Shown here one piece after another: positions 1,367-2,640 of a DNA stretch of 64,000 nucleotides. The DNA lies in the NCBI GenBank assembly GCA_965215015.1, contig OZ244042.1, positions 1,504,001-1,568,000 on the forward strand, written 5' to 3'. Numbering within the stretch: position 1 is the first letter of the stretch; every line of letters begins with the position of its first letter. Origin of the DNA: Candidatus Poribacteria bacterium (GTDB lineage Bacteria > Poribacteria > WGA-4E > PCPOR2b). The notes below the pieces were generated by a model. That model was not told where the DNA came from. It did no database searches and worked only from the letters and a program-made list of their open reading frames with translations. Made by a program: the position numbers and the translations under genes.

Positions 1367-1624
1367 TCATTGATACAACATTTCTTTGACTGAAAATTGT
1401 GCTTTTAATTGCAAGAGTTGCGCTTCTGGGAGCCCTGTAATTTCAGCGATGATCTCAATTTCCATTCCCTTGGCAAGCATCACCCTTGCGGATTCAATCT
1501 TTCCTTCCCTTTTGCCTTCGACCCGGCCTTCTCTTTTGCCTTCGACTCGACCTTCCCTTTTGCCTTCGACTCGACCGTTGTGAAAGATTTGTTGCTTCTC
1601 TTTTTCTAATGCGGTAATTAACAT
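1367..1624 (-). CDS. Stand-alone duplicate of the Rpn C-terminal domain (RpnS-like small protein), 3 x GRVEGKRE repeats
   Basis: Matches the upstream Rpn from its internal Met (MLITALEKE...); own RBS GAGGTAAGGACG-ATG; different C-terminal tail. Confidence 0.7.
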   Translation of the reverse strand: MLITALEKEKQQIFHNGRVEGKREGRVEGKREGRVEGKREGKIESARVMLAKGMEIEIIAEITGLPEAQLLQLKAQFSVKEMLYQ

Positions 1625-1629
1625 CGTCC

Positions 1630-2640
1630 TTACCTCTTTTCTGAGGGAAGCTCTGCCTTCAACTGCAAGAGTTGCGCTTCTGGGAGCCCTGTAATTTCAG
1701 CGATGATCTCAATTTCCATTCCCTTGGCAAGCATCACCCTTGCGGATTCAATCTTTCCTTCTCTTTTGCCTTCGACTCTGCCTTCTCTTTTGCCTTCGAC
1801 TCTGCCTTCCCTTTTGCCTTCGACTCGACCTTCTCTTTTGCCTTCGACTCTGCCTTCTCTTTTGCCTTCGACCCGGCCGTTGTGAAAGATTTGTTGCTTC
1901 TCTTTTTCTAATGCGGTAATTAACATCGTCCTTACCTCCTCTTCATCTTGATAAATAGTTTCTAATGACTCATAGTCTCTAGCTGCAATCCGTCCGTGGA
2001 GTGCCAACTGCTTGAACCAATTTAAAAACAGACTCACTGCCCCCTTGTCCGCCTCCGATGAGAACAGATTCAGCAACTCTGTCTCCAGCACATCTACATC
2101 GTAATACGATTCCGCTAAAAACAGTGTAGAGACGATGTTTCGGATTTTCAAAAGGGCTTGCTGGCTGTATCGGTTTTCAGCAATAAGGAAATACTGAAAA
2201 TCTAACGCAAACGCGCCCAATGACGGCGTCTGCTCAATTAAATCAGAAAGGTTAATCGGTGCTGTCCAACGGTCTTCTCCATTGTATAGCACGATGGGGA
2301 AAACCGCGGGCAATTTTTTTACCTGTTTATGCTCGGCAACATAGTCCATGTAGAAGTTGGTAATGTAGTTGAGGGCTCGTAACGCCATGAACGGGTCGAC
2401 CGTGGATTGGAACTCAATGAGGATATAAATGTAAACCTCATGGTTAAGCAACTGAACTTTGTAAATCAAATCACTTTCGGTTTCCTTGTAGTGTTGGGAG
2501 ATGAATGACTTATCAAGGGTTTCACAAGTCGCAAAATCCAGGTGATTGACCCATTCTTGTGTAACAAAGGTCTCAATCAGTTGCCGGAATATGGTCTGAT
2601 TTGAAAAGAGTTTTTTGTATCCGCTGTCGTGAATGTTCAC
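1630..2640 (-). CDS. Rpn-family recombination-promoting nuclease / putative transposase (PD-(D/E)xK), copy A, 5 x GRVEGKRE repeats
   Basis: HD.GYKKLFS, ESDLIYKV, LIEFQS..DPFMALR, LPAVFPIVLYNG...W motifs; EGKxEG repeats and C-terminal HTH-like tail. Confidence 0.9.
   Translation of the reverse strand: MNIHDSGYKKLFSNQTIFRQLIETFVTQEWVNHLDFATCETLDKSFISQHYKETESDLIYKVQLLNHEVYIYILIEFQSTVDPFMALRALNYITNFYMDYVAEHKQVKKLPAVFPIVLYNGEDRWTAPINLSDLIEQTPSLGAFALDFQYFLIAENRYSQQALLKIRNIVSTLFLAESYYDVDVLETELLNLFSSEADKGAVSLFLNWFKQLALHGRIAARDYESLETIYQDEEEVRTMLITALEKEKQQIFHNGRVEGKREGRVEGKREGRVEGKREGRVEGKREGRVEGKREGKIESARVMLAKGMEIEIIAEITGLPEAQLLQLKAELPSEKR

Follow-up and report, generated by a model that had tools for sequence, protein, structure and literature searches.

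An Rpn nuclease gene of Candidatus Poribacteria and a free-standing copy of its RpnS-type domain

Organization of the locus

The window analysed here, a stretch of 64,000 nucleotides (nt) from the genome of a Candidatus Poribacteria bacterium, contains at positions 1367 to 2640, on the minus strand, a gene for an Rpn-type nuclease (rpnL) and, directly downstream of it, a small open reading frame (ORF) that repeats the 3' end of rpnL. The rpn genes are described as genes within genes, in which an internally started protein, RpnS, blocks the toxic full-length protein, RpnL (Zhong et al., 2023, PNAS 120:e2307382120, PMC10400941). According to the passages of that paper used here, RpnS may also exist "as a separate gene", and downstream second copies are termed rpnSs. 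This name is used below for the small ORF. The features of the locus are as follows.

1630..2640, minus strand: rpnL, 336 amino acids (aa), GTG start; Rpn/YhgA-like PD-(D/E)XK nuclease with a C-terminal RpnS-type domain (ORF list, Pfam, NCBIfam, BLASTP)
1630..1920, minus strand: internal in-frame ORF, candidate RpnS, 96 aa from the ATG at 1918-1920 (sequence, orthologue comparison)
1929..1933, minus strand: GGAGG, a Shine-Dalgarno (SD)-like motif 8 nt before the internal ATG (read from the sequence)
1747..1869, minus strand: repeats of rpnL, a tract 41 aa long made up of 4-aa units (RVEG/KREG type) that begins 17 residues past the internal Met (sequence)
1625..1641, minus strand: duplication junction gaaaagaggTAAggacg, with the rpnL stop (1630-1632) and GAGG (1633-1636) 8 nt before the rpnSs ATG (sequence)
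1367..1624, minus strand: rpnSs, 85 aa, ATG start at 1622-1624, tail ending in LYQ; free-standing copy of the RpnS-type domain (ORF list, BLASTN, profile match)
1499-1573, minus strand: repeat tract of rpnSs, 25 aa (sequence)

Residues 3-181 of RpnL match Pfam PF04754 (Transposase_31; E 1.1e-31, 110.4 bits against a cut-off of 21), and residues 4-326 match NCBIfam TIGR01784 (Rpn family; E 1e-21, 78 bits against a cut-off of 52.1). RpnL is aligned by BLASTP with E. coli RpnE from end to end (23% identity, E 4e-12), and D5, D57, E76, Q78 and R88 of RpnL are aligned with D11, D63, E82, Q84 and R94 of RpnE respectively. Mutation of D11, D63, E82 and Q84, and also of R94, abolished the phenotypes of RpnA (Kingston et al., 2017, PMC5350276). 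RpnE and RpnA appear to share their residue numbering, so that the aligned positions of RpnL are probably the catalytic positions. By analogy with these proteins, RpnL is a putative DNA endonuclease and toxin of the Rpn type. A phmmer search with the whole of RpnL against the PDB sequences gives no meaningful match, and no model of PADLOC-DB v2.0.0 matches either RpnL or RpnSs.

The 18 nt preceding the internal ATG of rpnL are gaagaggaggtaaggacg. Of 11 orthologous rpnL genes, 9 have gaagaggaggtaaggacN before this ATG and two differ from it at one base, and the position of the ATG is aligned with the region of the internal Met of RpnE by BLASTP. An earlier note on this DNA, made from the sequence alone, had described an Rpn gene with a strong internal ribosome-binding site (RBS) before an ATG; the PF04754 and TIGR01784 matches and the position of the GGAGG motif bear this out. 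The repeat tract of rpnL falls in the long first helix that is predicted by an AlphaFold2 (AF2) model made on the small ORF.

Duplication of the 3' end of rpnL

The 17 nt preceding the ATG of rpnSs are gaaaagaggtaaggacg. When the window is compared with itself by BLASTN, positions 1400-1576 are 95.5% identical to 1654-1830 over 177 nt (E 1.7e-76), and positions 1503-1636 are 94.8% identical to 1805-1938 over 134 nt (E 2.9e-54). The two alignments are in different register, because the repeat tracts of rpnL and rpnSs are unequal in length. The duplication of the 3' end of rpnL as rpnSs is far beyond chance, and the segment that was said in the earlier note to be duplicated from the internal RBS onward as a separate ORF is indeed duplicated in this way. 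Because the gaagaggaggtaaggacg and gaaaagaggtaaggacg stretches correspond, the TAA of rpnL falls, as the note had it, within the stretch from SD to ATG that was duplicated; it precedes the ATG of rpnSs by 5 nt. All the details of the description in the note that were compared with the sequence are right. In addition, RpnSs matches only the last 49 positions (224-272) of TIGR01784, with an E-value of 1.5e-11, a score below the family cut-off.

The translations of the two ORFs give the same tail sequences as were read in the earlier note, which regarded the tail of the free-standing copy as the new one. The assignment is reversed here. Since a tandem duplication leaves the downstream copy on the original downstream DNA, the LYQ tail is the original gene end and the tail of rpnL is the new one. 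The last codons and the stop of rpnL are read from the duplicated RBS stretch (...GAA AAG AGG TAA). The LYQ-type end of rpnSs is conserved across species, in the genome of the window (G000) and in the relatives G008 and G018, and it also ends the single rpn genes of G012 and G013. On the sequence comparison, the novel tail is thus that of RpnL and of the RpnS within it; the free-standing copy does not have it.

A scan for promoters and terminators gives six promoter-like sites against 2.2 expected, two of them on the minus strand in the duplicated segment. This site (TTGCCA, 16 nt, GATCAT with TG) occurs once in each copy of the segment, at 1703-1730 and 1449-1476; transcripts from the upstream site would begin shortly before rpnSs. 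No terminator-like site is found by the consensus scan on the minus strand between rpnL and rpnSs. All of these are consensus matches only and are not used as evidence.

Predicted fold of RpnSs

A homologue search limited to proteins of 46-149 aa yields 69 homologues of RpnSs at E <= 1e-5 among 486 candidates, and 61 of the 69 carry the precomputed label PF27070.1. A profile (A1) made from RpnSs and 36 of these homologues (37 sequences) has E. coli RpnA-S (7TH0) as its top match in the PDB, with an E-value of 5e-4 over chain residues 8-45 of 49. In the AF2 model of RpnSs (mean predicted local distance difference test, pLDDT, 73), a long helix (residues 3-51), which holds the repeats, is followed by two short helices (residues 56-63 and 67-83). 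The first helix, of about 49 residues, is predicted with moderate confidence (pLDDT 61-66). When this model is compared with known structures by Foldseek, 7th0 is found at rank 11, with a probability of 0.90, a root-mean-square deviation of 0.9 Å over 38 columns, 34% identity and a TM-score of 0.77 by target. The E-value of this match is weak (1.2), because the superposition is limited to the short helix 2-3 part. RpnSs and RpnA-S are alike in their three-helix fold with a long repeat-bearing first helix, and differ in that the predicted first helix of RpnSs has about 49 residues and the superposition is confined to helices 2-3. The profile match and the helix arrangement agree with the view of the earlier note that the downstream ORF is an RpnS-type copy.

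Zhong et al. (2023) report a three-helix RpnS in which the 4-aa repeats are inserted into helix 1 at 8-20 residues from the initiating Met. The repeats of RpnS and RpnSs at this locus begin after a 17-residue head, in agreement with this rule. DUF4351 (PF14261) is given in the same paper as the Pfam label of some stand-alone RpnS genes. PF14261 gives no match to RpnSs, to the C-domain of RpnL or to E. coli YpaA, even at E-values up to 10.

A second copy of the locus in the window

The same arrangement is found again in the window, at 12411-13636, as the following features indicate.

293..3500: segmental duplicate a, with a DUF1611 gene, rpnSs and rpnL, and with a gene for an 845-aa protein that is represented by its 3' end only (self-BLASTN)
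11338..14496: segmental duplicate b, where the 845-aa gene (13675-16212) is whole (self-BLASTN)
12650..13636, minus strand: rpnL of copy b, 328 aa, repeat tract of 33 aa (ORF list, BLASTN)
12411..12644, minus strand: rpnSs of copy b, 77 aa, repeat tract of 17 aa (ORF list, BLASTN)

The segments 293-3500 and 11338-14496 are 95.4% identical over 3208 nt by self-BLASTN. The recurrence reported in the earlier note is thus correct as to the arrangement, but it is not independent: an independent origin at 12411-13636 is ruled out, and the whole locus was copied within a 3.2-kb segmental duplication.

Occurrence of rpnSs in the genome and its relatives

The genome of the window contains five loci of this Rpn subfamily, with N-domains 79-100% identical to the query. 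Three of the five are followed by a partial copy of the 3' end, namely the two window copies and C1:1622999-1624580; the last is regarded as a separate event, because its copy starts about 50 codons earlier. A match to RpnSs at E <= 1e-5 is found in 24 of 41 related genomes, G000 included. The site itself was surveyed by means of the neighbouring DUF1611 gene, which is present in 18 of 20 genomes of the genus, at 20 places. One of these (L040), which has a 114-codon DUF1611 fragment with a TAG, was left out, so that 19 loci were compared. Their states are as follows.

rpnL with rpnSs: 7 loci in 6 genomes (G000 twice, G003, G005, G008, G009, G018)
single rpn gene with an LYQ-type tail: 2 loci (G012, G013)
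single rpn gene with another tail: 2 loci (G015; G019, where the longest ORF has only 261 aa)
broken: 2 loci (G004, with ORFs of 205 and 82 aa; G011, with only a 64-aa C-terminal remnant)
no rpn gene: 6 loci (G001, G002, G007, G010, G014, G017)

Downstream RpnS duplicates, for which the earlier note proposed to look in related genomes, thus occur at 7 of the 19 loci. The junction is the same in all seven; each has a GAGG resembling an SD, and 5 nt separate the stop of rpnL from the ATG. The shared junction and spacing indicate one old duplication of single origin. In six species of the genus, the pair has thus been kept at one and the same place in the chromosome. None of the seven rpnSs genes has a frameshift or a stop within helices 1-3. 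The tail after helix 3 is dispensable, to judge from the orthologues. In G007 (L026), which has no rpn gene between the DUF1611 and 845-aa genes, about 80-95 nt matching the 3' end of rpnSs remain. This relic indicates that the pair once existed there and was deleted.

Pairs of the same kind are also found outside this site. L042 consists of ORFs of 351 and 101 aa, and L044, in another family of the order, of ORFs of 324 and 73 aa. At L043 (G003:C1:549900-556300), four tandem full-length rpn genes of 331-355 aa with different repeat tracts are followed by a 115-aa partial 3' copy. These three loci and C1:1622999-1624580 of G000 are independent events of the same kind in other paralogues. Orphan RpnS-like ORFs of 81-140 aa, lacking a nuclease domain and lying between unrelated genes, are common in the relatives (L009, L045-L049). 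At one such site, other relatives have a split gene (L014) or an internally deleted gene (L013). These sites indicate that the toxin part can be lost while the antitoxin-like part stays.

Gene conversion, fusion and repeat tracts

The nucleotide differences between rpnL and rpnSs within a genome, and between genes of the same type in different genomes, are given below for four segments of the duplicated region.

51-nt head: 1-5 between rpnL and rpnSs within a genome; about 5 between genomes
42 nt after the repeats: 0-6 within a genome; about 6 between genomes
next 51 nt, genomes other than G000: 8-12 within a genome; about 7 between genomes
next 51 nt, the two G000 copies: 2-5 within a genome; about 7 between genomes

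In the two 5' segments, the differences between genes of the same type range from 4.6 to 6.6. In a neighbour-joining tree of the 5' part, rpnL and rpnSs are grouped by genome in G000, G003 and G009, those of G005 and G018 are intermixed in one clade, and only the pair of G008 is ungrouped. In the tree of the 3' part, the sequences are grouped by type, except for G000, where all four cluster. Type-specific synonymous markers, TTGCAGTTGAAGGCAGAG in rpnL and TTGCAATTAAAAGCACAA in rpnSs, hold in the pairs of G000, G003, G005 and G009; rpnL of G008 and rpnSs of G018 deviate at a few bases. The single gene of G013 is of the rpnL type up to CAACTCTTGCAG and of the rpnSs type after it. This switch makes it a crossover product of rpnL and rpnSs, and fits the "fusion" route of Zhong et al. 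(2023). The patterns show gene conversion between the 5' parts of the rpnL C-domain and rpnSs, and fusion of rpnL with rpnSs at least once.

The repeat tracts of rpnL and rpnSs in the seven syntenic pairs have 41/25, 33/17, 33/9, 13/29, 17/29, 5/9 and 21/13 aa respectively and are never equal. Among these 14 sequences of one genus, the tracts range from 5 to 41 aa in steps of 4. Tracts of 53/37 (L042), 29/13 (L044), 61/29 (G000 C1:1622999-1624580) and 29/45 aa (L043) are counted by eye in the further pairs. The mismatch in length is not claimed as a selected feature: where tracts can take about ten lengths, chance alone would make every pair unequal, and the seven syntenic pairs go back to a single origin. 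In E. coli, RpnCS lengthened by one repeat no longer acted on RpnCLS, and its action returned when both had the added repeat (Zhong et al., 2023). In a commentary on that paper, a repeat mismatch is said to prevent complex formation and inhibition in trans (PMC10400984). If the same applies at this locus, RpnSs does not simply add to the dose of the resident antitoxin.

These results raise the possibility that rpnSs is mainly a recombination cassette, whose exchange with the 3' end of rpnL would reset the repeat number and tail of RpnL and RpnS, with the protein being secondary. The 5' part, including the flanks of the repeats, evolves in concert, fusion products are found in G013 and G012, the tracts of the two genes always differ, and the discussion of Zhong et al. 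(2023) suggests that RpnL may itself initiate such recombination. A pure role as a DNA donor leaves unexplained the protein-level constraint on the 3' part that is not exchanged (see below). Neither joints nor indels occur in the contigs from three sequencing runs that contain this DNA, but the contigs break at the repeats and are uninformative either way. A main role as a cassette is considered improbable, although it can coexist with the explanation preferred below.

Selection on rpnSs

Synonymous and non-synonymous differences were counted by the method of Nei and Gojobori (NG86) with a script of our own; the pooled pairs are not independent. Over 48 non-repeat codons, the ratio of non-synonymous to synonymous change (omega) is 0.13 for the seven rpnSs genes (21 pooled pairs); the corresponding stretch of the rpnL genes paired with them gives 0.11. 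A type-specific test was made on 17 codons of helices 2-3 where rpnL and rpnSs are type-specific, in the five genomes other than G000. The results of this test and of the comparison between the two window copies are as follows.

rpnSs, 17 codons: pooled omega 0.10; 42 synonymous (Sd) and 16 non-synonymous (Nd) differences in 10 pairs; minimum synonymous/non-synonymous states 10/4; P 2.8e-4 under neutrality
rpnL, 17 codons: pooled omega 0.40; Sd 27.5 and Nd 41.5; minimum synonymous/non-synonymous states 5/9; P 0.20 under neutrality
rpnSs, between the two window copies: omega 0.29; 6 synonymous and 7 non-synonymous changes; binomial P 0.037
other genes, between the two window copies: omega 0.02 for the rpnL N-domain, 0.03 for the rpnL C-domain and 0.15 for DUF1611

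The number of synonymous substitutions per site (dS) is about 0.45 for the rpnSs orthologues of the five species in the 3' stretch that is not homogenised. In helices 2-3 (1651-1701 of rpnL, 1397-1447 of rpnSs, and their orthologues), rpnSs is more conserved than rpnL in the five relatives; the numbers are small. By these counts, rpnSs is under constraint at the protein level, although in the most recent comparison the nuclease is the more tightly constrained of the two. With its SD and ATG present at all seven loci, helices 1-3 free of frameshifts and stops, and purifying selection on the codons, rpnSs looks functional and not decaying; decay of the stand-alone ORF in relatives had been named in the earlier note as what would tell against it.

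According to another explanation, RpnSs is a functionless by-product: the 3' ends of rpn genes, being prone to recombination, would often be duplicated, and the copy would survive only through constant renewal by gene conversion with rpnL. This is consistent with the repeated appearance of partial 3' duplicates with different breakpoints, with the truncated or read-through tails in G005, G009 and G003, with the losses, fusions and relics at the same site, with the omega of 0.29 for rpnSs against 0.02-0.03 for rpnL between the window copies, and with the clear conversion tracts. It does not fit the 3' stretch that escapes homogenisation, where the excess of synonymous states (10 against 4) is seen in five species at this dS, nor the SD, ATG and reading frame kept in 7 of 7 loci. 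Moreover, the E. coli counterpart, RpnESs, is synthesised (Zhong et al., 2023). The by-product explanation is therefore judged unlikely.

Comparison with published rpnSs systems

In the passages of Zhong et al. (2023) used here, rpnSs is represented by ypaA after rpnE, the protein of which was detected by tagging, and by rpnCSs after rpnC in some strains. These copies are reported to have arisen independently from their own upstream genes and to have been lost by deletion or fusion. In E. coli K-12, aaaaggagagattaATG is present both inside rpnE and before ypaA, the TAA of rpnE lies at the junction, and the gap is 12 nt. Counted by eye, YpaA exceeds RpnE by four residues in the repeat region, and it ends in a different tail. 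The poribacterial locus resembles rpnE-ypaA in that a small ORF on the same strand duplicates the C-terminal domain from the internal RBS, with the rpn stop at the junction, and in that the small copy departs from the rpn gene in the number of its 4-aa repeats and in its tail. It differs in the spacer, which is 12 nt in K-12 and 5 nt here, and in the repeats, which here have units of about 8 aa (two 4-aa units) and form much longer tracts (5-41 aa). The two are also distinguished by the nuclease, since RpnE was inactive in the assays of Kingston et al. (2017), whereas the nuclease described here keeps the residues aligned with the catalytic positions. Finally, the sequence identity is only 23% (RpnL against RpnE), and the hosts belong to different phyla.

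The rpnC-rpnCSs system, which is set beside the locus by its published description only, is alike in that the copy comes from its own upstream gene, is present only in some strains and is lost by deletion or fusion (Zhong et al., 2023). The parallel here is the presence of the pair at 7 of 19 syntenic loci, fusion in G013 and G012, and relics in G011 and G007. The small ORF at the locus is free-standing, on the same strand, directly downstream of rpnL and derived from the 3' end of its own rpnL, and its own RBS and start codon were duplicated with it at all seven paired loci, as also for ypaA of K-12. The locus is very probably a member of the rpnL/rpnS + rpnSs kind. The earlier note did not know this architecture as described. 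It is already published, with the same anatomy at rpnE-ypaA of K-12, and is not a new kind of system.

Surroundings of the locus

The 3.2-kb segments form direct repeats that bracket about 7.8 kb (3501-11337), with the following genes.

3977-4537: gene for a ThsB-like protein with a Toll/interleukin-1 receptor (TIR) domain
6819-7655: type II DNA methyltransferase gene
8088-10202: gene for a phospholipase D (PLD)-nuclease/HEAT protein
10486-11001: IS630-type helix-turn-helix fragment

Three ORFs lacking a Pfam match also lie there. The TIR, methyltransferase and PLD-nuclease/HEAT genes are within 8 kb of rpnL, and the surroundings are a defence-type neighbourhood, as reported for rpn genes. The region between the repeats looks like a small defence island inserted along with a duplication of its target. 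Elsewhere in the window, self-BLASTN detects a 1.2-kb tandem direct duplication (44831-46029 and 46037-47233, 95.3% over 1199 nt) and a diverged direct repeat (62636-62886 and 63645-63895, 75.6% over 254 nt).

Discussion

The locus is probably best explained overall as an Rpn toxin-antitoxin defence gene of the published type accompanied by an rpnSs copy. According to this explanation, RpnL would be a nuclease toxin and the internally started RpnS its cognate inhibitor, acting through the shared C-domain, as established for the E. coli homologues. rpnSs arose when the 3' end of rpnL, from the internal RBS to just before the original stop, was duplicated in tandem. In this way rpnL received a short new tail and a stop that lies within the copied RBS, and rpnSs kept the original gene end. 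RpnSs would be translated, probably in a manner coupled to the termination of rpnL 5 nt upstream, as suggested by the SD, the spacing of the ATG and the purifying selection, and would fold as a three-helix protein of the RpnS type, as suggested by the AF2 model and the 7TH0 match. It may bind the shared C-domain of RpnL and RpnS through its long first helix, in a shifted register. RpnSs is expected to be a weaker or non-cognate partner that tunes neutralisation rather than a simple extra dose of antitoxin, because its tract differs from that of RpnL by 4-24 residues and a mismatch of one repeat abolished neutralisation in E. coli RpnC. rpnSs also recombines with the 3' end of rpnL, which alters both genes. 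On the orthologue comparisons, RpnSs is likely to be a translated and selected protein; that it neutralises or tunes the adjacent RpnL is somewhat less likely than not. The roles put forward in the earlier note, as a dosage booster, decoy or second specificity module, are candidate roles, both here and for the rpnSs genes of Zhong et al. (2023).

Several points weigh against this explanation. Binding of RpnSs to the resident RpnL is the weakest step of the mechanism, since by the published rule the difference of 4-24 residues between the tracts argues against it. The parts of Zhong et al. (2023) and Kingston et al. (2017) used here contain no E. coli RpnSs with a demonstrated function, and literature searches found no later paper on the function of RpnSs. 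RpnE itself was inactive in Kingston et al. (2017). The pair is lost or absent at 12 of the 19 loci of the same site, and the tail past helix 3 is not conserved, the ORF having 84 aa in G005 and 61 aa in G009 and reading through to a different tail in G003. Between the window copies rpnSs changes faster than rpnL (omega of 0.29 against 0.02-0.03), and gene conversion could have brought in from rpnL much of the constraint that is apparent over the 5' part of rpnSs. The cleanest test of selection covers only 17 codons in five related species, with pooled pairs that are not independent.

Public sequencing runs are uninformative on the transcription of rpnSs. Nine runs share words with the locus, four of them sponge metatranscriptome runs (share 0.06-0.07) and five of unknown kind, and contigs of X1, X5, X7 and X9 were compared with it. 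The RNA library X1 gives an 810-nt contig over 2008-2656 with 40 other letters, which is the nuclease domain of a relative; the other runs are fragmented at the repeats. The sponge metatranscriptome contigs thus give nothing over rpnSs, and RNA contigs are obtained only of the nuclease domain of a relative.

An rpnSs kept as a sister cassette of mismatched length has also been considered. Repeated conversion or crossover between it and the 3' end of rpnL would then alter the repeat tract and the tail in the toxin and in its internal antitoxin at the same time, and RpnSs would have a separate conserved partner, contacted through helices 2-3. This combination is improbable, to about the same degree as the two alternatives weighed above. 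If the cassette reading is true, the defence gene would have a built-in means of changing its interface, a diversification of the cassette type.

The preferred explanation, a published-type rpn gene with an rpnSs copy, adds a non-enterobacterial example of the rpnL/rpnS + rpnSs arrangement, in a host that is probably a sponge symbiont. Beyond the passages of Zhong et al. (2023) used here, the locus and its orthologues present a downstream copy that can be kept in several species under purifying selection, that exchanges sequence with the nuclease gene and whose tract length is always different from that of rpnL. This sharpens the question of what RpnSs proteins are for, and points to matched versus mismatched repeat numbers as the place to look.

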